From an uncultured Actinomycetota bacterium (GTDB lineage Bacteria; Actinomycetota; Actinomycetes; Propionibacteriales; Propionibacteriaceae): 64,000 bases of DNA. Positions 6,511 to 60,456 of the stretch are shown here, piece after piece. The stretch spans positions 156,067 to 220,066 of the forward strand of contig CAWCDP010000007.1 in NCBI GenBank assembly GCA_963794405.1, read 5' to 3'. A program made the translations under genes and the position numbers. Every line of letters begins with the position of its first letter. The stretch's first letter is position 1. The notes under the pieces are model-generated. The model did no database searches, had not been told where the DNA came from, and was given only the letters and a program-made list of their open reading frames with translations.

Positions 6511-8346
6511 ATGGCTCGACGGTCCTTGCGGGCAGGCGCCGCCCTGCTCGGTCTGGCCCTCGCCGGCACGCTGCTGGTCGGTGTGTCCCCGACCTCCGCC
6601 GGGGCGAGCCCCAGCACCGAGCAGCGGGTGACGAAGAAGAACCCGACGGCGTACGGGTGGGGCGGCGCGGTGGCCAGCGTGGACCCGGAGGCGACCGCGG
6701 CCGGGCTGCGGGTGCTGCGGGACGGCGGCAACGCGGTGGACGCGGCGGTGGCCACCGCCGCCGCGCTCGGTGTCACCGAGCCCTACTCCGCCGGTATCGG
6801 CGGTGGCGGCTACTTCGTCTACTACGACGCCAGGACCCGTCGGGTGCAGACCATCGACGGTCGCGAGACCGCTGCGCAGAGCATGCCCGAGACGGCCTTC
6901 ACCGATCCGGCGACCGGGCAGCCCTACCCGTTCGACCAGCTGGTCACCAGCGGCAAGTCCGTCGGGGTGCCGGGGACGCCGGCCACCTGGGAGCGGGCCC
7001 TGCAGCGGTGGGGGCGCAGGTCCCTGGCCGCCGACCTGCAGCCGGCGATCCAGATCGCCACCCGCGGCTTCGAGGTGGACCAGACCTTCCGCGACCAGAC
7101 CGTGCAGAACCAGACGCGGTTCGCGCAGATCACCCCCACGGCGCAGCTCTTCCTGCCGGGCGGGGCCGCACCCGAGGTCGGATCGATCTTCCGCAACCCC
7201 GAGCTCGCCGACACCTACACCGCGATCGCCCGGGGCGGCGCGCGGGTGATGTACCGCGGGCCGATCGCCGACGAGATCGTCCGCACCGTGCAGCAGCCGC
7301 CCAAGGACCCCGGCGCGACCCTGCCGGTCTGGCCCGGCTACCTGACGGCGTCGGATCTGGCGACGTACCGAGCCCTCGACCAGGCGCCGACCGCCGTGCG
7401 CTACCGCAACCTGAACGTCTACGGGATGGCGCCCTCGTCCTCGGGCGGCACCACTGTCGGTGAGGCCCTGAACATCCTGGACACCCAGAACCTGAGCCGG
7501 ATGTCCACCCCCCGGGCCCTGCACTACTACCTGGACGCCTCGGCCCTGGCCTTCGCCGACCGGGCCGCCTACGTCGGCGACCCCGCCTTCGCCGACGTGC
7601 CGACGCAGACCCTGCTGTCGCAGCGTTTCGCCGACGGCCGGGCCTGTCAGATCCCTCGTCAGCAGGCGCTGGTCACCCCGACCGCGAAGGGCGACCTGTT
7701 CGCCCGCGGCTGCCGGACCGCCGGGGTGTCACCGGCGTCGGACCAGGGGAAGTCGACGACCCACCTGGTCACCTCCGACCGCTGGGGCAACGTCGTCTCC
7801 TACACGCTGACCATCGAGCAGACCGGCGGCTCCGGCATCGTGGTGCCCGGTCGTGGCTTCCTGCTCAACAACGAGCTCACCGACTTCACCGCTGCGTACG
7901 TGGCCACCGACCCCAACCGGATCCAGGGCGGCAAGCGGCCCCGCTCGTCGATGTCGCCGACCATCGTGCTGGACGGCCGCGGCGAGCCCGTGTACGCCGT
8001 CGGGTCGCCGGGCGGCTCGACCATCATCACCACCGTGCTGCAGACCCTGGTCAACCGGATCGACCTCGGCATGACCCTGCCCGAGGCCGTCGCCGCACCG
8101 CGGGCCTCGCACCGCAACGCGGCCACGGTGACGGCGGAGCCGGCGTTCATCGACCGGTACGGTGACGCGCTGACCGCGCGCGGCTACACGCTGGTGAAGA
8201 GCGGCGACGCGTTCACCTCCGCGGCCGAGATCGGCGCGGTGGCGGCGCTGGAGTTCCGCCCGGGCGGGTACGTGCTCGCGGCCGCCGAGCCGGTCCGGCG
8301 GGGCGGCGGTTCGGCCGGTGTGGTGGTCCCGACCTCTCGTCGGTGA
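6511..8346 (+). CDS. ggt: secreted gamma-glutamyltransferase
   Basis: 611 aa with a signal peptide (RRSLRAGAALLGLALAG). Autoprocessing/nucleophile region GKSTTHLVTSDRWGN, plus GGSTIIT. Confidence 0.9.
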   Translation: MARRSLRAGAALLGLALAGTLLVGVSPTSAGASPSTEQRVTKKNPTAYGWGGAVASVDPEATAAGLRVLRDGGNAVDAAVATAAALGVTEPYSAGIGGGGYFVYYDARTRRVQTIDGRETAAQSMPETAFTDPATGQPYPFDQLVTSGKSVGVPGTPATWERALQRWGRRSLAADLQPAIQIATRGFEVDQTFRDQTVQNQTRFAQITPTAQLFLPGGAAPEVGSIFRNPELADTYTAIARGGARVMYRGPIADEIVRTVQQPPKDPGATLPVWPGYLTASDLATYRALDQAPTAVRYRNLNVYGMAPSSSGGTTVGEALNILDTQNLSRMSTPRALHYYLDASALAFADRAAYVGDPAFADVPTQTLLSQRFADGRACQIPRQQALVTPTAKGDLFARGCRTAGVSPASDQGKSTTHLVTSDRWGNVVSYTLTIEQTGGSGIVVPGRGFLLNNELTDFTAAYVATDPNRIQGGKRPRSSMSPTIVLDGRGEPVYAVGSPGGSTIITTVLQTLVNRIDLGMTLPEAVAAPRASHRNAATVTAEPAFIDRYGDALTARGYTLVKSGDAFTSAAEIGAVAALEFRPGGYVLAAAEPVRRGGGSAGVVVPTSRR

Positions 8347-8391
8347 CGCCGACCTCCCGCAGCCGGGGTGCGGCCGGCCGTTCGACGCCGC

Positions 8392-8994
8392 TCAGTCATC
8401 CAGACCGCGAGCGATCAACGCGTCGCCCAGCTGCTGGGCGTGCCGCAGGGCACGGACCAGCAGCGGCACGGCGAACGCCCGCGGACTCGACGGCAGGCCG
8501 CGGGCTCGCTGGGCGTCCCGGAGCTGCTCGGCCAGGCCCAGCACCACGGGGATCGCTCGGATGCTCAGGGCCAGCAGCAGACCGACCCGCTCGGGCGCGA
8601 CCCCGAACCGGCGGAAGGGACCGAGTGCGGCGACCACCACGCCGCTCAGGGCGGTGGTCGTGGTGGTCAGGGTGACGAGTCCCGCGGCGAGCACCAGCAG
8701 CAGGATCGTCACCGTGACCGACACCGCGAGCCGCCAGTCCGCGAGCAGCAGCTGGGCGACCGCGATAGCGGCCAGCACCCACCACAGCGACCGCAGCTGG
8801 CGCAGGGCGAAGCCGAGACCGATCCGGGCCAGCGGATAGAGCAGCAGCACGGCGCACAGGAGCAGGCACCGCTGCCACCACTCCGCCAGCAGCTGACTCA
8901 GCAGCGCCAGTCCGACCAGGCCCAGCACCTTTGCGCCGGCGGGGGCCCGGTGCAGGATCGAACCACCCGGCACGTACAGCCCGAGCAGGCTCAC
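8392..8994 (-). CDS. ecfT: ECF transporter transmembrane (T) component, BioN-like
   Basis: Trimmed to the GTG at 8994 (200 aa). Polytopic CbiQ/EcfT-like protein with an ARG...D C-terminal motif. GTGA overlap with the upstream ATPase. Confidence 0.8.
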   Translation of the reverse strand: MSLLGLYVPGGSILHRAPAGAKVLGLVGLALLSQLLAEWWQRCLLLCAVLLLYPLARIGLGFALRQLRSLWWVLAAIAVAQLLLADWRLAVSVTVTILLLVLAAGLVTLTTTTTALSGVVVAALGPFRRFGVAPERVGLLLALSIRAIPVVLGLAEQLRDAQRARGLPSSPRAFAVPLLVRALRHAQQLGDALIARGLDD

Positions 8995-12443: not shown

Positions 12444-14963
12444 GTGAGCGCAGAGCTGACGCTGGGTGCCGAGGAAGAGCTGCACCTGATCGACCTCGAG
12501 AGCTGGAGCCTGTCGGCCCGGGCACCGCAGGTGCTGTCCCGGTTGCCGGGCGACAACTACTCCGCCGAGATCCAACGCACCACCGTCGAGACCAACACCG
12601 ACGTCGTGTCCGGTCTGGGCGAGCTGCGGAGCGAGCTGGTCCGGCTGCGCCGGGGGCTGGCCGAGGTCGCCGCCGCCGAGGGACTCGGCATCGCCTCCGC
12701 CGGCACCGCACCCAGGTCGGTGTTCGCCGACTTCGAGCTCACTGCGACCGGTCGCTACGGCCGGATGCAGGAGCAGTACCGGCTGCTGGTCGACGAGCAG
12801 CTCATCTGCGGCCTGCAGATCCACGTCGGGGTGTCCAACCGCGACCTGGCGGTCCAGATCATGCAGCGGGTGGCCCGGCACCTGCCGATCCTGCTGGCCC
12901 TGTCGGCGAGCTCCCCGTTCTGGAACGGGCAGGACACCGGCTACTCGAGCATCCGCACGATCATCTGGCAACGCTGGCCCAGCGCGGGCACGACCGGTCG
13001 GATCGAGTCGGCCGAGGAGTACGACGAGCTGCTCGACGACCTGATCACCAGCGGGGTGATCGCCGACCGGAAGATGGCCTACTTCGACGTCCGGCCCTCG
13101 GCCCACGCCCCGACCCTGGAGCTCCGGGTCTGCGACGCCTGCCCGATCGTGGACGACGCGATCCTGATCGCCGGGCTGTTCCGGGCTCTGGTGCGCTCGG
13201 CCGAGCACGAGATCGCCGAAGCCAAGCCGTTCGTCCCGTTCCCCGCCCCGATCCACCGGGCGGCGATCTGGCGGGCCGCCCGCGGCGGGATGACCAGCGA
13301 GCTGCTCGACGACAGCCGCCACCCCCGACCGATCCCGGCCGCCCAGGCCGTCCGGGGGCTGCTGGAGCGGCTCCGACCGTTCCTGATCGAGCTGGACGAC
13401 TACGACGAGGTCGAGCAGCTGGTCGCCACCGCCCTGGCCCGGGGCAACTCGGCCGACCGGCAGCGGGCCGCCATGGCCGAGCGTGGCGAGCTGGATGACG
13501 TGGTCGAGCTGGTCGTCAACGAGACCCAGGGACCACCGGAGGGGCTGCCGGCCGAGGTGCCGGAGCTGCGGACCTACCGTCCGCGCGCCGGTGACGAGGC
13601 GGTCGGGCTCGGTCATCGGCCGCGGCCGGTCTACCACGACATCATCGAGCACTTCCGCACGATCGGTTCCGAAGGCTGGCGGCAGGCGGAGGAGCGCCGC
13701 GACGCCTGGACCGACGAGCACGACCTCACCTTCGGCGTCGAGCAGGAGAAGCGACGGTTCGCGGTCGACCTGATGCCGCGGGCGCTGAGTCCGCACGAGT
13801 GGGAGAGTCTGCGGGTCGGCCTGATCCAGCGGGCCCGGGCGATCGAGTCGTTCCTGGCCGACGTGTACGGCGACCAGCGGGTGGTGGCCGACGGGGTGCT
13901 CCCCACCGACCGGGTGGTCGGGTCGCTCGGCTGGAGACCGGAGGCCACCAGGCTGCCGGCCGGCACCGTACGGGCGCCGATCATGGGCTTCGACCTGGTC
14001 CGCAACGAGTTCGGCGGCTGGCGGGTGCTGGAGGACAACGTCCGCAACCCGAGCGGTGCTGCGTACGCGATCGCGATCCGGGACCTGCTGGACGCGGTCC
14101 TGCCGGACCTCCCCCGGCCCGCGGGCCTGCTGAAGCCGGCGGACGCCCTGCCGCGGATCCGCGCCACCCTGCTGCGACACGCCAGACCCGGCACCGCCGC
14201 GGCCGTGTTCTCGACCGGACCGCACGCCTCCGCCTGGTTCGAGCACCGGCTGCTGGCCGAGCGGGGCGGTCTGCTGCTGGTCACCGCCGACGATCTGGAC
14301 GTCCGGGACGGGCGGGTGCGGCACCGGGTCAGTGACGAGGTGATCGGCGCGCTCTACCTGCGACTCGATGACGAGCTGGTGGACGTGACCGACGGCGAGG
14401 GCCGCGCCATCGGCGCCGAGGTGTTCGAGGTCGCCGTCGCCGGGGACGTGGTGCTGGCCAACGCCCCGGGCAACGGCGTGGCCGACGACAAGGCCATGTA
14501 CTGCTACGTGCCCGAGCTGATCGCCTACTACCTGCAGGAGCGACCGCTGCTGGAGTCGGTGCCGACCTACCGGACCTCCGACGAGACCGAGCGACGGATC
14601 GTGCTGGAGCGGGTCGGCGAGCTGGTCACCAAGCCGGTCGACGGCCACGGGGGTCAGGGCGTGCTGATCGGACCGGACGCCTCGGCGTCGGCGGTCGCGC
14701 ACCGGCGGGCCGAGATCGCCGCCGACCCGGCCGGCTGGGTGGCCCAGGAGGTCGTGGCGCTGTCCTCACACCCCACCTTCGACGACGGTGTGCTGCAGCC
14801 CCGGCACGTGGATCTGCGCGCTTTCGTGTACCTTCGCGGAACGGCGCCGGGCGATTGCGAGCTCGCGCCGCTGGGACTCACCCGGGTCGCCCCCGAAGGC
14901 AGTCTGGTCGTCAACTCGTCCCGGGGCGGCGGCGCGAAAGACACCTGGATCATCAACGAGTGA
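12444..14963 (+). CDS. fusion protein: GCS2/YbdK-type carboxylate-amine ligase + circularly permuted type-2 ATP-grasp
   Basis: GTG at 12444 (a TTG at 12435 is also possible), 839 aa. The N-terminal half has GAEEELHLID, QIHVGV and YFDVRPS (GCS2). The C-terminal half has VLANAPGNGVADDKAMY, VTKPVDGHGGQGVLIGP and VNSSRGGGAKDTW (CP ATP-grasp). Confidence 0.85.
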   Translation: MSAELTLGAEEELHLIDLESWSLSARAPQVLSRLPGDNYSAEIQRTTVETNTDVVSGLGELRSELVRLRRGLAEVAAAEGLGIASAGTAPRSVFADFELTATGRYGRMQEQYRLLVDEQLICGLQIHVGVSNRDLAVQIMQRVARHLPILLALSASSPFWNGQDTGYSSIRTIIWQRWPSAGTTGRIESAEEYDELLDDLITSGVIADRKMAYFDVRPSAHAPTLELRVCDACPIVDDAILIAGLFRALVRSAEHEIAEAKPFVPFPAPIHRAAIWRAARGGMTSELLDDSRHPRPIPAAQAVRGLLERLRPFLIELDDYDEVEQLVATALARGNSADRQRAAMAERGELDDVVELVVNETQGPPEGLPAEVPELRTYRPRAGDEAVGLGHRPRPVYHDIIEHFRTIGSEGWRQAEERRDAWTDEHDLTFGVEQEKRRFAVDLMPRALSPHEWESLRVGLIQRARAIESFLADVYGDQRVVADGVLPTDRVVGSLGWRPEATRLPAGTVRAPIMGFDLVRNEFGGWRVLEDNVRNPSGAAYAIAIRDLLDAVLPDLPRPAGLLKPADALPRIRATLLRHARPGTAAAVFSTGPHASAWFEHRLLAERGGLLLVTADDLDVRDGRVRHRVSDEVIGALYLRLDDELVDVTDGEGRAIGAEVFEVAVAGDVVLANAPGNGVADDKAMYCYVPELIAYYLQERPLLESVPTYRTSDETERRIVLERVGELVTKPVDGHGGQGVLIGPDASASAVAHRRAEIAADPAGWVAQEVVALSSHPTFDDGVLQPRHVDLRAFVYLRGTAPGDCELAPLGLTRVAPEGSLVVNSSRGGGAKDTWIINE

Positions 14964-36859: not shown

Positions 36860-37190
36860 CGGAGTCAGCATCCGCACCTCCGAGTCATCTTCGGACGTCT
36901 CGTACGCGGACGGACCGTTTGGCGCCCCCGAGCCGCGGCCGGTCGGCTCCCCCGCGGACCGACCTACCGTTCAACGCCCGGAAGTCACATCCGGGCACCC
37001 GGCACGCCGCTTGAACCGCCATTCGGCGCCTCCGAGTCACATCCGGTCAACCACGCGCGGATCGGGCGACCGTCTCACGCCGCCGAGTCACATCCGGTCA
37101 ACCAACCCGCGGACCGACCGACCGTTCAACGCCCGGAAGTCACATCCGGGCACCCGACGACGTGGCAGCGGCGCCCGTACGGCCCAGCTC
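36860..37190. repeat. degenerate tandem array, 51-52 bp period (about 6-7 units) with a 155-bp higher-order repeat
   Basis: The AGTCA anchor recurs at 36863, 36883, 36983, 37035, 37086 and 37138, with a degenerate AGCCG copy at 36931. An identical 22-mer occurs at 37032 and 37083. A 51-nt block at 36951-37001 repeats at 37106-37156 with 1 mismatch. Confidence 0.75.
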
Positions 37191-45906: not shown

Positions 45907-46983
45907 TCATGATGCGGTGGTCTCGGCGATGGTGGCGCTGCCCACGACCTGGGACCCGCGGTAGCTGACCAGGGCCTGACCGGCGGCCACCCCGGCGATC
46001 GGCTCGTCCAGCCGAGCCACGACCCGATCGCCCTCGTACGCGATCTCGGCGGTGACCGGTTCCCCGTGCGCGCGGACCTGGACCTGGCCGCGCCAGCGTC
46101 CGGTGACCGGACGATCGGTCCAGGTCGGCCGGATGCCGGCGATCTCACGGACGAGCAGGGCCTCGCGCGGACCGACGGTGATCGTGTTCGTCACCGGTGA
46201 GATGTCCAGCACGTAGCGGGGCTGCCCGTCCGCCGCCGGGGTGCCGATCCGCAGGCCCTTGCGCTGGCCGACCGTGTAGTGATGGGTCCCCTCGTGCTGT
46301 CCGACGGTGGCCCCCGTCTGGTCGGTGATGGTGCCGGGACGGGACCCGAGGTGGCGGTCCAGGAAGCCTGCCGTGTCCCCGTCGGCGATGAAGCAGATGT
46401 CGTGGCTGTCCGGCTTGTCCGCCACCGCGAGCCCGCGCCGCTCGGCCTCGGCCCGCACCTCGCTCTTCAGCGAGCCGCCCAGCGGGAACAGCGAGTGGGC
46501 CAGCTGGTCCTGGGTGAGCACGCCGAGCACGTACGACTGGTCCTTGTCGTGGTCAACTGCGCGGTGCATCTGGACACCGTCCGGGCCGTCGGTGAGCTGG
46601 GCGTAGTGGCCGGTGCAGACCGCATCGAACCCCAGCGCCAGACCCCGCTGCAGCACGGCGGCGAACTTGATCTTCTCGTTGCAGCGCAGGCACGGGTTGG
46701 GCGTGCGCCCCGCCGCGTACTCGGCCACGAAGTCGTCGACCACGTCGGCGGCGAACTCGTCACTCAGATCCCAGACGTAGAACGGGATCCCCAGCACGTC
46801 CGCGGCCCGCCGCGCGTCGTGCGCGTCCTCCTTGGAGCAGCAGCCCCGGGCGCCGGTGCGGTAGGACTGCGGGTTCTTCGACAGGGCCAGGTGCACGCCG
46901 GTGACATCATGGCCGGCCTCGACCGCGCGCGCCGCAGCAACGGCGGAGTCGACTCCCCCGGACATGGCGGCCAGCACCCGCAT
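45907..46983 (-). CDS. mnmA: tRNA 2-thiouridine(34) synthase
   Basis: [19 protein letters not shown]-loop, NPCLRCN, and the conserved catalytic Cys context. Confidence 0.92.
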
Positions 46984-47049
46984 GGACTCCCCCTCACTCG
47001 ACAGCCGCCCAGTCTGTCACGGTTCGTGCGCCCGTTGCCCTGCGCCGCG

Positions 47050-47300
47050 GGGCACGTTCTCGCCACGGACGCGTTTCTGCTTCCGGCACCTCGCCGGGAC
47101 GTGCAATTTCCATCCACGGACGACCCATCCTGCAGTCAGGGCCGCCGGGGCCGTGCAATTTCCATCCACGGACGACTTTTCCCCCTGCCAGGGCCGCGAG
47201 GACGTGCACATTCCATCCACGGACGACTCTTCCTGCTGCCAGGGCCGCCGGGCCGTGCAATTTCCATCCACGGACGACCCATCCGGGGCTGCACTCAGGC
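47050..47300. repeat. tandem array, 5 units of 51-52 bp (left flank of the DUF559 gene)
   Basis: Core GTGCAATTTCCATCCACGGACGAC occurs at 47101, 47153, 47204 (2 mismatches) and 47255. A degenerate unit has CCACGGACG at 47063. Confidence 0.9.
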
Positions 47301-48227
47301 GGCAGTGCGACTTCCGCCGAACGCCTGGCGCCACTCGACCGACGGCTTCCGTCTCGTCGTCGCCAGGCCGCGATCGCGAAGGGCGTTCCTGATGTCCTCC
47401 AACGTCTCCTCCGGCCGATCGAAAACACCTTCGGCCGTGACCAGGATGAAGCGCCAGCCCAGCGCCTCCAGCCTCGTCCGCCGGCGGATGTCCTTGTTCC
47501 ACTGCACCGGGTTCTCGGCATGCTGACGTCCCTCGTACTCGATGGCCAGCAAGATCCCCCGATAGGCCAGCTCGATCCGGGCGTCCCAGCTCCCGTCTTC
47601 GGCCCGCAGGATGACGTTCACCTGAGGTTCCGGGAGCCGAGCCAGGACCATGAGCATGCGAAGTCGCGTCTCCATCACCGAGTCAACGCCGGCCCGGACC
47701 CACCTGGCAGCACGTCGAGCCACTCGGCATCCCGGGCCGCTCCACATGGCGGCAGCGTCGATCAGCTCCTGCTGGCTCGTGCACCCCGCCGCGACGAGTG
47801 AGTCACCGACCGCGACGAGGTCGACGAGTCCGAGCCCGGCGCCAGCCAGATCCAGGAAGACCCGGGTGGGCGGCGCAATAGGAACCCCCGACCGGACCAC
47901 GGTACGCAGCACGGGATCGGCTCGATGGGCCGCGATGCCCCGTCGCTGAGTACGGGACAGAGATCCGGGAGAGCTCACGTGCGTCTCCGCGGTTGTCGGC
48001 GCCCACCCGCCCCACAGCACGGCTGCGGTGTGATGGCTCACGTACGACCCCGAGGGAACGATGAGCATGGCAGCTGCCGCCCGCACCCGGCAGGTCAGCT
48101 GGACGCCGGCCCGTACGTAGATCCCATGGAAGATCCGCTGGTACTGGATTCCCTGCAGCTCTTGATCGCTGAGCGATGACGCCAGAGCGCTACGACGGGT
48201 GAACGGTCGGCTGGTGTCGAGAGACAT
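47295..48227 (-). CDS. AbiEi-like wHTH + DUF559 (Vsr/restriction-endonuclease-fold) protein
   Basis: Trimmed to MSLDTSRPF at 48227 (310 aa). The N-terminus has QRIFHGIYVR. The C-terminus has LAIEYEGRQHAENPVQWNKDIRRRTRLEALGWRFILVT, typical of DUF559. Confidence 0.7.
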   Translation of the reverse strand: MSLDTSRPFTRRSALASSLSDQELQGIQYQRIFHGIYVRAGVQLTCRVRAAAAMLIVPSGSYVSHHTAAVLWGGWAPTTAETHVSSPGSLSRTQRRGIAAHRADPVLRTVVRSGVPIAPPTRVFLDLAGAGLGLVDLVAVGDSLVAAGCTSQQELIDAAAMWSGPGCRVARRAARWVRAGVDSVMETRLRMLMVLARLPEPQVNVILRAEDGSWDARIELAYRGILLAIEYEGRQHAENPVQWNKDIRRRTRLEALGWRFILVTAEGVFDRPEETLEDIRNALRDRGLATTRRKPSVEWRQAFGGSRTAA

Positions 48228-48445
48228 GCTGTCCAGCCTCGAGCCACCTGCGGGGTGATGGAGCACTGTCCCCAGGCGGACGTGTTGTCCGTTCTCCCGC
48301 CGTGTGCACCCGCTGGCTCGACCGTTGTCCGAGCAGGCCAGGTGTTGTCTCACTGCATGCCCGGCGACGTCTCCAGCCTGTCCCTCGAGACCGCAGGGAG
48401 CTTCGCGTGGAACGAGACGGTCTCGCGGACCCCGTCGAAGTCAAA

Positions 48446-48700
48446 GTCGTCCATGGATGGATATTGCCGCCCGCCGTACCCGTCGCCGACCAGAAATCAC
48501 ATCTGCGGATGGAAATTGCAGCCGGCCGGACCCGTACGCGCCCGAACCCACGCCCACGGATGGAAATTACGGCCGGCCGGACCCGTACGCGCCCGAACTC
48601 ACGCCCACGGATGGAAATTACGTCCGGCTGGACCCGTACGCGCCCGAACTCACGCCCATGGATGGAAATTACGGCGAGCCGCACACCTCGACCACCCAGA
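48446..48700. repeat. tandem array, 5 units of 51-52 bp, inverted relative to the 47050-47300 array (right flank)
   Basis: Core GGATGGA(A/T)ATT occurs at 48455, 48507, 48558, 48609 and 48660. Units 3 and 4 are near-identical over 51 bp. Confidence 0.9.
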
Positions 48701-48736
48701 CCCGGGCCAGCCAGGCCCGCGAGCCACCCGAGGAGT

Positions 48737-49903
48737 TCAGCCGGCGACGCCGCCGAACGCCCGGGCGCGGCCCAAGACCTCGGGCAGGGCCGCCGCCAGG
48801 GCGTCGACATCGGCGCGGGTCGAGGTGTGGCCCAAGGAGAAGCGGAGCGCGGACCCCGCCTGCCGCACCGTCCGTCCCAACGCCAAGAGCACGTGGCTCG
48901 GCTCGGCCACGCCGGCCGCGCACGCCGAGCCGGTGGAGCAGTCGATGCCGGCCGCATCCAACAGCAGCAGCAGGGCGTCGGCCGAGCAGCCCGGCAGCTC
49001 CACGTTGAGCACGCCGGGCAGTCGATCGCCCGGGTCGGTGGGACCGTGCACCACGGCCTCCGGCACCGCGGCCAGGACGGCGGCGACCAGAGCGCCGCGG
49101 AGTGACTCCAACCGCACGCGCTCGGATGCCTGCGTCGCCACAGCCAGCGCCAGTGCCGCCGCGAAGCCCGCCACCCCGGCCACGTCCAGCGTGCCGGAGC
49201 GGACGTCGCGCTCCTGACCGCCGCCGTGCTGCACCGACTGCAGCACGATCTCCCGCCGTGCGAGCAGAGCCCCCACCCCGACCGGACCACCGAGCTTGTG
49301 GGCGGTCACCGTCATCAGGTCCAGACCGCTCGCGCCGAAGTCCACCGGCAGGTGCCCGACGGCCTGGACGGCGTCACTGTGGGACCAGGCTCCGGCCCGG
49401 CGGGCGACCTCGGCCATCTCCATGATCGGCTGCACGGTGCCGATCTCGTTGTTGGCCCACATCACCGACACGACTGCCGTACGGTCGTCGACCGCCGCCG
49501 TCAGCTCCTTCAGTCCCACCCGCCCGACCGGGTCGACCGGCAGCTCCACCAGCTCCGCGCCGGCCGAAGAAGCCAACCAGCGAGCCGGATCCAGCACGGC
49601 GTGGTGTTCGACCGAGCTGATCACCACCCGCGAGCGACCGTCGCCCTGACGCGCCCAGAACGAGCCCTTGATCGCCAGGTTGTCGGCCTCCGTGCCACCG
49701 GAGGTGAAGATCACCTCGGCCGGCCGGGCACCGACCAGCTCGGCGACCTGCTCCCGGGACTCCTCGAGGGCCCGGCGGGCCGCACGTCCGGAGGCGTGCA
49801 GCGACGACGGGTTCCCGGTCGCTCCCCAGTGGCGGGACATGGCCTCGACAGCGGCGGCCACCACGGGGGTGGTCGACGCGTGATCGAGATAGGTCCGCTG
49901 CAC
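48737..49903 (-). CDS. iscS: cysteine desulfurase (IscS/NifS class)
   Basis: 388 aa with [30 protein letters not shown]-like ([12 protein letters not shown]) PLP-lysine motif and GSACAAG. Confidence 0.9.
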
Positions 49904-58160: not shown

Positions 58161-60456
58161 GCTGACCGGATGGGACCTGACCGGTTTCCACGAAGGTCAC
58201 GACACCGAGGCCTGGCGGCGACTCGGCGCCCACGAGATCACCGTCACCGACAGTGAGCGGGGTCAGATCGCCGGTACGCGCTTCGCGGTCTGGGCGCCGA
58301 ACGCCCAGGCCGTCCGTCTCGTCGGCGACTTCAACTACTGGAACGGCGATTCCTCCTCGATGCACCTGGTGCCGGGCTCCGGCGTCTGGTCGCTGTTCGT
58401 CGAGGGCGTGGGCACCGGCACCCTCTACAAGTTCGAGGTGCTCGGCGCCGACGGGGTGTGGCGCCTCAAAGCCGACCCGTTCGCCCAGTTCTGTGAGGCT
58501 CCCCCGCACAACGCCTCGATCGTCTACGAGTCCCAGTACGCCTGGAACGACGACGAGTGGCTGTGGTACCGCGGGCAGAAGAAGCAGTTCCAGGAGCCCG
58601 TCAGCGTCTACGAGCTGCACCTCGGGTCGTGGCGCAAGGGGCTGACCTACGTCGAGCTGGCCCGCCAGCTCGTGGAGTACGTGACCTGGCAGGGCTTCAC
58701 CCACGTCGAGCTGATGCCGGTCGCCGAGCACCCGTACGACGGCAGCTGGGGCTATCACGTCACCGGCTACTTCGCGCCCATCTCGCGGTTCGGTTCCCCC
58801 GACGAGTTCCGCTACCTGGTGGACGAGCTGCACAAGGCCGGCGTCGGGGTGATCGTGGACTGGGTGCCCGGCCACTTCGCCACCGATCCCTGGGCCCTGC
58901 AGCGCTTCGACGGCACCGCGCTCTACGAGCACGAGGACCCGCGGCTGGGCTGGCACCCCGACTGGGGCTCCTACATCTTCAACTTCGGCCGCAACGAGGT
59001 GAAGGCCTTCTTGATCTCCAACGCCTTCTACTGGTTGGAGGAGTTCCACATCGACGGGCTGCGGATCGACGCGGTGGCCTCGATGCTCTACCTGGACTAC
59101 TCCCGCGAGGCGGGTCAGTGGGTGCCGAACATCTACGGCGGCAATGAGAACCTCGAGGCAGTCGACCTGCTGCAGAAGGTCAACGAGCACAACTACCGGC
59201 GCAAGCCCGGGATCATGATGATCGCCGAGGAGTCGACCTCCTGGCCCGGGGTGACCCGCTCCATCGACAACGGCGGTCTGGGCTTCGGCTTCAAGTGGAA
59301 CATGGGCTGGATGAACGACTCGCTCCGCTACCTGGGGCGCGAGCCGATCTACCGGCAGTATCACCACCACGAGATGACCTTCGCGATGGCGTACGCGTAC
59401 TCGGAGAACTTCGTGCTGCCGATCAGTCACGACGAGGTCGTGCACGGCAAGGGTTCGATGTTCGAGCGGGTGCCGCAGGACGAGTGGCGCAAGTTCGGCA
59501 CTCTGCGGGCGTTCTACGCGTTCATGTGGGCCCATCCCGGCAAGAAGCTGCTCTTCATGGGCACCGAGTTCGGTCAGCGTCGGGAGTTCTCCGAGTCCCG
59601 CAGCATCGACTGGGACGAGAGTGCGCACTGGGGTCACCGCGGGGTCCAGCGCCTGGTCAAGGACCTCAACGAGACCTACATCTCGCACCCAGCCCTGTAC
59701 AAGCTGGACAACGACCCAGCGGGCTTCCGCTGGATCAACGCCGACGACGGTGGCGGCAACGTCTTCTCCTGGGTCCGTTTCGACGGGGACGGGCAGATGA
59801 TCGCCTGCATCACCAACTTCTCCTCCGAGTCGCGCCCCGACTACCGGGTCGGGCTTCCCGCGGAGGGTGCCTGGCAGGAGATCCTGAACACCGACGCCGA
59901 CGTGTACGACGGCACCGGCAGCATCGGCAACCTCGGCGAGGTGGTCGCCCATCCCGTTCCCTCCAACGGGTTCCCGGCCTCCGCCACCGTGACCATCCCG
60001 CCCCTGGGTGCGGTGTGGCTGCTGCACCAGGCCGCGCCGACCGAGGAGTCGGGCGACCCGGAGAAGGAGACGGCCGGGACGCTGGCGGCGGCCAAGCAGG
60101 CCTCGCCCCGCCCGACCAGGCGAGTGGCGCAGGTCGTGGGGGTGCCGGAGGACGGACCGTCCGAGGACGTGTCCGCGAAGGCGCCGGCGAAGAAGGCCGC
60201 CGCCAAGAAAGCACCCGCTCCAGAGGCCGCCGCCAAGAAAGCACCCGCCAAGAAGGCCGCCGCCAAGAAGACGCCGGCGAAGAAGGCGGCGGCAGCAGTC
60301 GAGGAGACGGTGGAGAAGGCGGCCGCAGCGGTCGAGGAGACAGTCGAGAAAGCGGCCGCAGCGGTCAAGAAGGCGGCCGGCAAGAAAGCCCCGGCCAAGA
60401 AGACCGCGGCCAAGAAGACGGCCGCGAAGAAGGCGACTCCCCCACCGGAGTCGTGA
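58138..60456 (+). CDS. glgB: 1,4-alpha-glucan branching enzyme with a Lys/Ala-rich C-terminal extension
   Basis: ATG at 58138 preceded by AAAGGAG. Motifs: FAVWAPNA, HVELMPV, GLRIDAVASM, IAEEST, ISHDEV. About 140 aa of AKKAAAKKAP-type tail follow the catalytic core. Confidence 0.92.
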   Translation: MAFDPGGELTGWDLTGFHEGHDTEAWRRLGAHEITVTDSERGQIAGTRFAVWAPNAQAVRLVGDFNYWNGDSSSMHLVPGSGVWSLFVEGVGTGTLYKFEVLGADGVWRLKADPFAQFCEAPPHNASIVYESQYAWNDDEWLWYRGQKKQFQEPVSVYELHLGSWRKGLTYVELARQLVEYVTWQGFTHVELMPVAEHPYDGSWGYHVTGYFAPISRFGSPDEFRYLVDELHKAGVGVIVDWVPGHFATDPWALQRFDGTALYEHEDPRLGWHPDWGSYIFNFGRNEVKAFLISNAFYWLEEFHIDGLRIDAVASMLYLDYSREAGQWVPNIYGGNENLEAVDLLQKVNEHNYRRKPGIMMIAEESTSWPGVTRSIDNGGLGFGFKWNMGWMNDSLRYLGREPIYRQYHHHEMTFAMAYAYSENFVLPISHDEVVHGKGSMFERVPQDEWRKFGTLRAFYAFMWAHPGKKLLFMGTEFGQRREFSESRSIDWDESAHWGHRGVQRLVKDLNETYISHPALYKLDNDPAGFRWINADDGGGNVFSWVRFDGDGQMIACITNFSSESRPDYRVGLPAEGAWQEILNTDADVYDGTGSIGNLGEVVAHPVPSNGFPASATVTIPPLGAVWLLHQAAPTEESGDPEKETAGTLAAAKQASPRPTRRVAQVVGVPEDGPSEDVSAKAPAKKAAAKKAPAPEAAAKKAPAKKAAAKKTPAKKAAAAVEETVEKAAAAVEETVEKAAAAVKKAAGKKAPAKKTAAKKTAAKKATPPPES
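60286..60372 (+). repeat. 33-bp in-frame tandem repeat (about 2.6 copies) inside the GlgB tail
   Basis: The peptide AAAAVEETVEK occurs twice, then AAAAVKK. Nucleotide units start at 60286, 60319 and 60352. Confidence 0.85.

Follow-up and report, generated by a model that had tools for sequence, protein, structure and literature searches.

Why is a single nuclease-like gene of an actinobacterial chromosome enclosed by two mirror-image tandem arrays? The question is raised by a stretch of 64,000 nucleotides from an uncultured member of the Propionibacteriaceae (contig CAWCDP010000007.1 of assembly GCA_963794405.1, positions 156,067 to 220,066; hereafter the window), in which a gene for a 310-amino-acid protein of the DUF559 family (47295–48227, - strand) separates a cysteine desulfurase gene from mnmA. 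A sequence-only reading had interpreted this insert either as a mobile or recombination-prone cassette with array-type terminal inverted repeats, or as repeat expansion on both sides of an inserted gene, in the manner of mycobacterial interspersed repetitive units (MIRUs). Based on the comparison of related loci, we lean on balance towards another answer: the insert would be one member of a large actinobacterial family in which a nuclease gene is accompanied by its own cognate repeat. The logic would be that of the RAYT-REPIN systems, where a transposase-like gene (REP-associated tyrosine transposase, RAYT) is paired with repetitive extragenic palindromes (REPs) and their doublets (REPINs), but the parts are others.

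Two inverted arrays and the core that they repeat

The presence of two inverted 51-bp arrays around the gene was borne out by Tandem Repeats Finder (TRF), by a repeat search and by a scan for the core, and a single gene (- strand) lies between them. The array 5' of the gene, situated on its right side (48448–48696, + strand), is composed of five units of 51–52 bp, which start at 48448, 48500, 48551, 48602 and 48653 in the repeat search. Each carries the core GGATGGAAATT on the + strand, with core starts at 48455, 48507, 48558, 48609 and 48660; TRF assigns to this array a period of 51, 4.4 copies and 86% matches (48451–48675). The innermost of these units is similar to the unit type of the left array. 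The array 3' of the gene, on its left side (47092–47297, - strand), has four units of 51–52 bp (starts 47092, 47144, 47195 and 47246), the final one touching the stop codon of the gene. Here the core is found on the - strand at 47105, 47157 and 47259, with a copy at 47208 that has two mismatches, and TRF reports a period of 51, 3.8 copies and 82% matches (47092–47284). Five units per side had been proposed. This number stands for the right array, whereas the left one has four good units followed by a degenerate fifth (47047–47076, - strand; 67–70% to the other units over 30 nt).

When at most one mismatch is allowed, the 11-mer GGATGGAAATT occurs eight times in the window, every time at these arrays (three copies on the - strand at the left, five on the + strand at the right), against 0.12 occurrences expected by chance. 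The inverted relationship between both arrays passes a formal alignment as well, with 22-nt arms that are 91% identical and a 51-nt arm spanning the whole unit at 75%.

The conserved part of the unit is a 26-nt block, AA..C.TCC-GT-GGATGGAAATTGC, as seen in 148 units from 34 sequences aligned on the core. It consists of one strong and one weaker half-site, and the other ~26 nt of the unit are without conservation. Across the related loci compared, the core equals half of a 28-bp near-palindrome, GCAATTTCCATCC-RY-GGATGGAAATTGC. Cores in the same orientation follow each other at 51 bp in 42 and at 52 bp in 33 of the 95 spacings within 130 bp, and wherever the orientation switches, '-' cores come before '+' cores; the reverse order was never seen.

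The complementary CCGTG...CACGG arms, which had been pointed out in the left units, do not hold up as a structure, given that single-strand folding of the window's units is no better than that of shuffled sequence (z +0.2 to +2.1). In the same comparison, strong palindromes are confined to array centres and to the units of some other subfamilies. A search of 46800–48900 against Rfam gave no match at E <= 1. With neither single-strand folding nor an Rfam family, a double-stranded, dyad-like protein-binding site is the simplest reading of the repeat, and the core is probably the binding site of the nuclease that it flanks. The folding result rules out a REP-like hairpin for the window's units and the empty Rfam scan a known RNA family behind the arrays. 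A CRISPR array (clustered regularly interspaced short palindromic repeats) was rejected likewise: the spacers within an array are near-identical (84–87%) and there are no cas genes in the neighbourhood.

Two further repeat regions were observed in the window. One is another tandem array, of 52-bp period (36951–37149; 3.8 copies, 73% matches), with a conserved segment of its own (CCGAGTCACATCCGG...). By tblastn, no DUF559-family gene lies near it or elsewhere in the window apart from the one described, and at the other loci compared its core forms no array, just scattered single chance matches. Possibly it is a gene-less array that belongs to a different subfamily, the gene of which lies elsewhere in the genome. 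At 60177–60435, overlapping tandem repeats of 15, 30, 33 and 45 bp are rich in AAG/GCC codons. If read in that frame they would encode a Lys/Ala/Pro-rich sequence, and they are reminiscent of the basic, repetitive tail of actinobacterial histone-like/DNA-binding proteins.

Distribution and co-variation of gene and repeats

The pairing of gene and arrays recurs among distant homologues. Three proteins with ~50% identity are encoded in different contexts (between glycosyltransferase and tautomerase genes, beside EF-Tu, and between pyruvate kinase and tRNA-Leu genes), and each of the three genes has inverted arrays of 51–52-bp period on its flanks, with a core of its own. We then considered 80 metagenomic loci with homologues at 40–52% identity. 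The best direct-repeat offset falls at 49–54 bp in 73 of 127 gene flanks (51 bp in 19, 52 bp in 48), compared with none of 160 segments taken from the coding sequence of the gene itself and one of 72 flanks at a distance of over 1.2 kb. Mapping of a shared 20-mer succeeded in 42 loci, with 1–7 units per side; the upstream units are oriented toward the gene in 39 of these loci, and in 38 the downstream units have the opposite orientation. In the Actinomycetota the pattern spans two orders, and in Microlunatus a second subfamily has a conserved slot of its own, shared by different genomes (L054, L146). The family itself is large, comprising 1,458 clusters at 50% identity (E <= 1e-30).

Isolates of another order (Intrasporangiaceae) belong to it as well. 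Pedococcus dokdonensis has three 52-bp units upstream and two 62-bp units downstream that are 85–95% complementary, Phycicoccus sonneratiae has three 51-bp units upstream and one inverted copy downstream, and Knoellia flava has three units of 66–67 bp on the downstream side only. The genes of P. dokdonensis (L143, 3001–3930) and P. sonneratiae (L144, 3001–3930) occupy the same slot, between genes for the acetyl-CoA carboxylase (ACC) epsilon subunit and a MOSC-domain protein, in opposite orientations, and their proteins are 48% identical. This arrangement is compatible both with an inversion of the segment between the flanking arrays, which are inverted, and with insertions that occurred independently. 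At locus L058, a tRNA-Leu(CAA) gene (7016–7099) directly follows the downstream array, one case of insertion beside a tRNA gene.

The cores of the subfamilies differ, yet all fit a single template, in which an A/T-rich TTTCC is separated by about five bases from CA..GG. Their similarity increases with that of the proteins. Across 27 loci, core identity amounts to 0.42 where the proteins are less than 55% identical, 0.68 at 55–70%, 0.82 at 70–90% and 0.98 above 90%. The Spearman correlation between core and protein similarity is 0.315, a value reached by none of 2000 permutations. Split by protein half, it is 0.414 for residues 1–195 and 0.067 for the nuclease domain. Core similarity thus appears to track the N-terminal domain, and the contrast between both halves is more telling than the overall correlation. 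The family-wide association and this co-variation contradict the idea of plain MIRU-like slippage beside an unrelated gene.

For the window's own subfamily, one genome per species was scanned for two exact cores with starts 47–57 bp apart, so that array counts per genome are lower bounds. The scan yielded 52 loci, 35 of which are in Microlunatus or in metagenome-assembled genomes (MAGs) of uncultured Actinomycetota with ~70% GC, confirming that the core is present elsewhere in these genomes. The 17 low-GC loci outside Actinomycetota were treated as unrelated to the arrays. In Methanothermococcus sp. Ax23, an archaeon of 31% GC (L009, 3808–7257), more than 50 units of ~67 bp each contain GGATGGAAATT; this array resembles a CRISPR array, is unrelated, and matched merely through the short core.

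An orthologue of the gene (68–85% identity) was found in seven loci, six from the scan and the public ENA contig from which the window comes (L053), in the slot etfA – desulfurase – gene – mnmA and with arrays on both sides in all of them. An eighth, more distant genome (L139; mnmA 86% identical) has the same layout, which brings the syntenic occurrences of gene plus arrays to at least eight Microlunatus-like genomes (L007, L010, L020, L021, L043, L048, L053, L139). In L139 the core has been altered identically on both sides of the gene, from CCATCC to CCACCC. The still more distant L140 (mnmA 79%) has a gap of 56 bp between desulfurase and mnmA, with no gene and no repeats. Relative to this genome the insertion postulated earlier is borne out, and the empty site indicates that the unit was inserted long ago and has been passed on vertically from then on. 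No target-site duplication was recognisable against the empty site of L140, as the intergenic sequence is too diverged. The same layout in the eight related genomes and in ~40 distant homologues, with cores that differ by subfamily, also supports the view of gene and arrays as one unit.

Both flanking genes were confirmed by Pfam and by synteny: mnmA, encoding the tRNA 2-thiouridine synthase (45907–46983, - strand), and the gene for a class-V aminotransferase, the cysteine desulfurase (48737–49903, - strand), are co-directional with the DUF559-family gene. In accordance with the sequence-only reading, Pfam detects no transposase or integrase domain at the locus; this, together with the single and syntenic position of the locus, rejects a DNA transposon with terminal inverted repeats. 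The assumption of a currently mobile cassette fared worse, since the clade shows no sign of it: there is one syntenic copy per genome among the recovered loci, purifying selection acts on the gene, and there is no carriage by plasmids or phages. In L053 the MnmA and DUF559 proteins are identical to those of the window; the desulfurase differs (frame changes, 96–98% identity), and the gene caller has stretched it to 479 aa, through the repeat array (7194–8633, corresponding to ~48330–49790 of the window). The same contig has a PemK-family toxin gene a few kb downstream of mnmA (14434–14775), with no apparent relation to the arrays.

At least 27 actinobacterial loci carry the same core without the gene. 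These gene-less arrays are intergenic, occur in every gene orientation, including about five between convergent genes, and number 1–8 recovered per MAG; gene-bearing loci number one per genome among those recovered. Many gene-less arrays are two-armed, with '-' units followed by '+' units that meet at a perfect 28-bp palindrome. Orthologous gene-less arrays were identified across MAGs (L003/L023/L046/L049, L011/L047, L042/L044). Their unit number varies, from seven in L042 to two in L044 and from three in L011 to five in L047, and while their flanks are 81–88% identical the cores are exact. The persistence of exact cores within diverged flanks indicates that the cores are under selection or being homogenised. 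No array-free orthologue of a gene-less array locus was found, every orthologous pair compared carrying arrays.

The protein and its promoter region

The AlphaFold2 (AF2) model of the protein, built from 17 homologues, has a mean predicted local distance difference test (pLDDT) score of 90.8 and consists of two parts. Residues ~1–195 are AbiEi-like, with a winged helix and the AbiEi C-terminal domain, and residues ~196–300 form a PD-(D/E)XK nuclease of the Vsr/DUF559/MTES_1575 type. The AbiEi-like N-terminus had been anticipated from the sequence. It is supported by Foldseek, which aligns the N-terminal ~190 residues with the AbiEi antitoxin 6y8q (E 1.8e-4, probability 1.0, 188 aligned columns), and by a PADLOC AbiEi hidden Markov model (HMM) that matches residues 27–160 (E 7.4e-10). 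The Pfam AbiEi models gave no match to the protein at E <= 0.01, and the PADLOC matches are limited to AbiEi models plus weak matches of the nuclease domain.

The C-terminal ~100 residues match the catalytic domain of I-Bth0305I (3r3p, which is also a profile match), the DUF559 protein NGO0050 and Vsr, with template modelling (TM) scores, normalised to the target, of 0.79 for 3r3p, 0.71 for 3hrl and 0.53 for 1cw0. In Pfam, MTES_1575 (38.5 bits, cut-off 38.2) and DUF559 (22.2 bits, cut-off 20.6) both match residues 216–283, both marginally; no NCBIfam model matches the protein or the three relatives searched with it. Of the motif residues, E230, H236, D246, R249 and R250 do not vary across 17 sequences, and two acidic active-site positions, 219 and 232, hold Asp in nearly all relatives but Glu (E219, E232) in the window protein and its closest orthologue.

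Comparisons between orthologues give a dN/dS of 0.11–0.23, by which the protein is kept by purifying selection. The dS of the gene is raised (0.79–1.13, against 0.26–0.53 for mnmA and 0.58–0.65 for the desulfurase in the same genome pairs; ~1.7–3x overall, and two to three times the value of mnmA), and dN/dS is alike for all three genes; a locally raised mutation rate, an exchange of alleles or a constraint on the codon usage of the neighbouring genes are possible reasons. The gene tables of the 12 loci examined contain no AbiEii (DUF1814) or other partner gene. No relatives were found on 72,556 plasmids, on phages (tblastn) or on IMG/VR viral contigs (scan), which rules out a plasmid- or phage-borne element.

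The non-repeat 5' region of the gene (48228–48447, - strand) was inspected and compared within the family. Most members have an element CCTGTGGA(T/C)AAC between the upstream array and the start codon, which on the other strand holds the DnaA-box consensus TTATCCACA/TTGTCCACA. Of 68 upstream regions, 44 contain the motif CTGTGGA, compared with none of 68 downstream regions and none of 86 coding regions; the full 9-mer consensus of the DnaA box occurs 35 times in upstream regions, on either strand, and is absent from both controls. Where the element stands in forward orientation it lies ~50 nt before the ATG and is followed, at 7 nt from this codon, by a -10-like hexamer (CAGGCT or CACTCT). The copy of the element in the window is degenerate (CCTGGGGACAG, 48266–48276), and its -10-like hexamer is GAGGCT (48235–48240), again 7 nt before the ATG. 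Such a position suggests a leaderless mRNA and, with it, a leaderless promoter for the gene. The element may be bound by DnaA or by the protein itself. The three GTTGTC motifs reported for the 5' region are present on the + strand, at 48284, 48324 (one position before the start first given) and 48344, and correspond to GACAAC elements of the gene's promoter region.

Explanations of the gene-plus-repeat unit

In the reading that we prefer, the AbiEi-like module would recognise the 26–28-bp dyad-like core, one per unit of 51–52 bp. This spacing is close to five helical turns and would place the sites on one face of the DNA, thereby favouring cooperative binding. AbiEi proteins are known to bind cooperatively to inverted repeats in their own promoter (PMC7319586, PMC3985639). 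With mirror-image arrays that point outward from the gene, the protein could coat both flanks of its own gene and would probably repress the leaderless promoter between the upstream array and the start codon. The nuclease would nick or cut at or near the bound sites, and recombinational repair or slippage would follow. By these processes units may be gained and lost, the cores of all arrays may be kept identical while the spacers drift (concerted evolution), and new arrays may be seeded now and then. The gene-less arrays, which share core and outward polarity with those of the gene and often have a perfect 28-bp palindrome as their junction, would be accommodated by such a scheme, and the unit as a whole would be inherited vertically and kept up by purifying selection. 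RAYT genes likewise are single-copy, have REPs on their flanks and are inherited vertically (PMC3116915; bioRxiv 10.1101/2021.07.10.451892). A more far-reaching version, in which the family represents a new class of Actinomycetota element whose sequence-specific nuclease creates, homogenises and spreads phased 51–52-bp arrays of its own 26–28-bp site, with co-evolving specificity, is proposed tentatively, and we would put its chances below even.

Several points weigh against the preferred reading. Binding and cleavage by the protein are what we infer from comparative data, and the nuclease of the window's clade may be attenuated, given E219 and E232. The co-variation between protein and core is confounded by the shared descent of gene and flanks, which are inherited together. 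The orthologous gene-less arrays are old and positionally stable, active dispersal was not observed, and gene-less arrays have been demonstrated for the window's subfamily alone. Some family members deviate, with periods of 62 or 66–67 bp or with an array on one side, and a nuclease plus its repeats leaves the DnaA-box-like element unaccounted for.

The same observations were weighed under other explanations. The gene could be a selfish gene of the homing-endonuclease type, with the perfect 28-bp palindrome of gene-less arrays as its target; it would be copied into the array centre by double-strand-break repair, the arrays serving as homology arms. The similarity of the nuclease domain to the catalytic domain of I-Bth0305I, its nearest relative by TM score and a profile match, points in this direction, and so does the gene's location exactly at the position of the palindromic junction in gene-less arrays, with the same outward polarity. 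The many different chromosomal slots of family members and the empty slot in L140 fit as well. Nevertheless, genomes with one recovered gene-bearing locus each keep several gene-less arrays with intact perfect palindromes, at positions that are orthologous across species, whereas an active homing enzyme should convert or destroy them. The innermost units beside the gene are moreover ordinary ones, with a strong and the usual weak half-site, instead of a split palindrome. With purifying selection on a gene that is syntenic in at least eight genomes, and with no relatives on plasmids or phages, we regard homing as unlikely, though a serious candidate. The AbiEi-like N-terminus opens another possibility, namely a toxic or defence nuclease that represses itself through the arrays as extended operators (by cooperative binding or looping), gene-less arrays being relics of lost genes or decoys. 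AbiEi proteins autoregulate via multiple inverted repeats (PMC7319586), the leaderless promoter is bracketed by arrays, the sites are phased at ~5 helical turns, and the rapid divergence of protein and cores resembles that of conflict systems. Yet arrays past the stop codon and 2–7 units per side exceed the needs of repression, and about five gene-less arrays are located between convergent genes with nothing there to regulate. Several gene-less arrays per genome keep exact cores in flanks that are 12–19% diverged, which is not what neutral relics would show. The gene tables examined list neither AbiEii nor any other partner gene, and for a defence role PADLOC offers only AbiEi models and weak nuclease-domain matches. 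Self-repression as the full explanation thus seems rather improbable to us.

Two further possibilities are effectively excluded. Slippage-prone MIRU-like repeats, or sites of an unrelated host protein, might have come to lie beside an inserted DUF559 gene by coincidence. The 51–52-bp units, their intergenic position and the copy-number variation between lineages do resemble mycobacterial MIRU and variable-number tandem repeat (VNTR) loci, and the window contains the other 52-bp array (36951–37149) with no such gene nearby. However, the association holds for homologues of 40–52% identity in unrelated contexts and in two orders, with subfamily-specific cores and with control regions that are free of it; core similarity follows the DNA-binding half of the protein, and the core of L139 is altered alike on both sides. 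Coincidence is therefore very improbable. Hardly credible is the remnant of an iteron-type replicon, in which an initiator gene with iteron arrays and DnaA boxes, as in P1 and F, would have become chromosomal. A gene bracketed by two arrays of repeats that look like protein sites, and the DnaA-box consensus upstream of most family members, would suit such an origin. But the protein is an AbiEi-like module plus a nuclease and no Rep initiator, a search of 72,556 plasmids gave no relatives, the locus has a syntenic position on the chromosome, the period of 51–52 bp differs from the ~22 bp typical of iterons, and gene-less arrays are dispersed around the genome.

The preferred reading, a nuclease gene with its cognate repeat, is closest in logic to the REPIN-RAYT systems of Pseudomonas and Enterobacteria. 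Both have a single-copy nuclease-type gene flanked by its own inverted repeat, gene-less copies of the repeat dispersed intergenically (here in the window's subfamily), a cognate repeat that differs for each family member, and vertical inheritance with long persistence under purifying selection. The components differ. The enzyme described here combines an AbiEi-like module with a Vsr/PD-(D/E)XK nuclease, whereas RAYT is an HUH Y1 transposase similar to IS200/IS605 TnpA. The repeat is of a double-stranded dyad type, without a hairpin in the window's units, whereas REP is a hairpin recognised as single-stranded DNA. Phased 51–52-bp tandem arrays with strict outward polarity take the place of hairpin doublets, and the hosts are Actinomycetota.

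With AbiEi of the type IV AbiE systems (6y8q of S. agalactiae; Rv2827c of M. tuberculosis) the protein shares the fold of its N-terminal ~190 residues and HMM matches, and cooperative binding to inverted repeats around its own promoter is a feature of AbiEi. Here, in contrast, there is no AbiEii (DUF1814 nucleotidyltransferase) partner, the neighbours being mnmA and the cysteine desulfurase; the module is fused to a nuclease, and its presumed sites have been amplified into arrays that flank the gene and that also occur elsewhere in the genome. From the group of I-Bth0305I (3r3p, EDxHD), Vsr (1cw0) and DUF559 (3hrl) come the catalytic fold and the motif (I/V)E.(D/E)G...H...D..R, as well as the principle of a separate N-terminal DNA-binding region for long-site specificity. 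Unlike in that group, the gene is not located in an intron or intein and displays no sign of recent homing, arrays of the presumed site flank it, and at two active-site positions the window's clade has Glu instead of Asp.

Mycobacterial MIRU/VNTR loci share with the arrays the intergenic tandem units of ~50 bp in an actinobacterium and the variable unit number at orthologous loci. According to their descriptions, MIRUs have no dyad symmetry and follow the orientation of the operon. The arrays described here differ by a conserved dyad-like 26-nt site in each unit, a two-armed inverted organisation, a cognate gene and an occurrence in every gene orientation. Iteron replicons (P1 incC/incA, F incB/incC around rep) have a gene between two arrays of protein sites and a DnaA box nearby; they differ from the present system, which has no Rep protein, is not found on plasmids, and has 51–52-bp units in arrays dispersed on the chromosome. 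The system thus lacks at least one defining feature of each of RAYT-REPIN, AbiEi and the Vsr/EDxHD homing enzymes. In the literature searched, which left out most subscription journals, no description of this gene-plus-repeat architecture was found, and a prior description is possible.

The comparative evidence suggests a role for a family of 1,458 clusters annotated only as 'DUF559 / hypothetical', pointing to a DNA-binding nuclease that is tied to phased arrays of its own site. Proteins named 'DUF559 domain-containing protein' are enriched among predicted targets of programmed inversion (PMC9881135). This enrichment fits the inverted arrays and the opposite gene orientations in the Pedococcus/Phycicoccus slot, and the arrays may explain it. 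For annotation, it matters that such arrays can be miscalled as coding sequence, as in L053, or taken for CRISPR arrays. Intergenic tandem arrays of ~50 bp serve VNTR typing in actinobacteria, and the system offers a way to test their origin; should the more far-reaching version of our reading be true, it would explain how MIRU-like VNTR arrays arise. In that case nature would also have supplied a set of DNA-binding nucleases for long sites whose protein/site pairs can be read off, perhaps linked to replication via the DnaA box of the promoter. More than ten natural protein/site pairs on one template could be mined for the recognition code of 26–28-bp sites. Beside RAYT-REPIN, the family would constitute a second persistent, vertically inherited gene-plus-repeat system made of unrelated parts, and it would as such bear on how systems of this kind persist in bacterial genomes.

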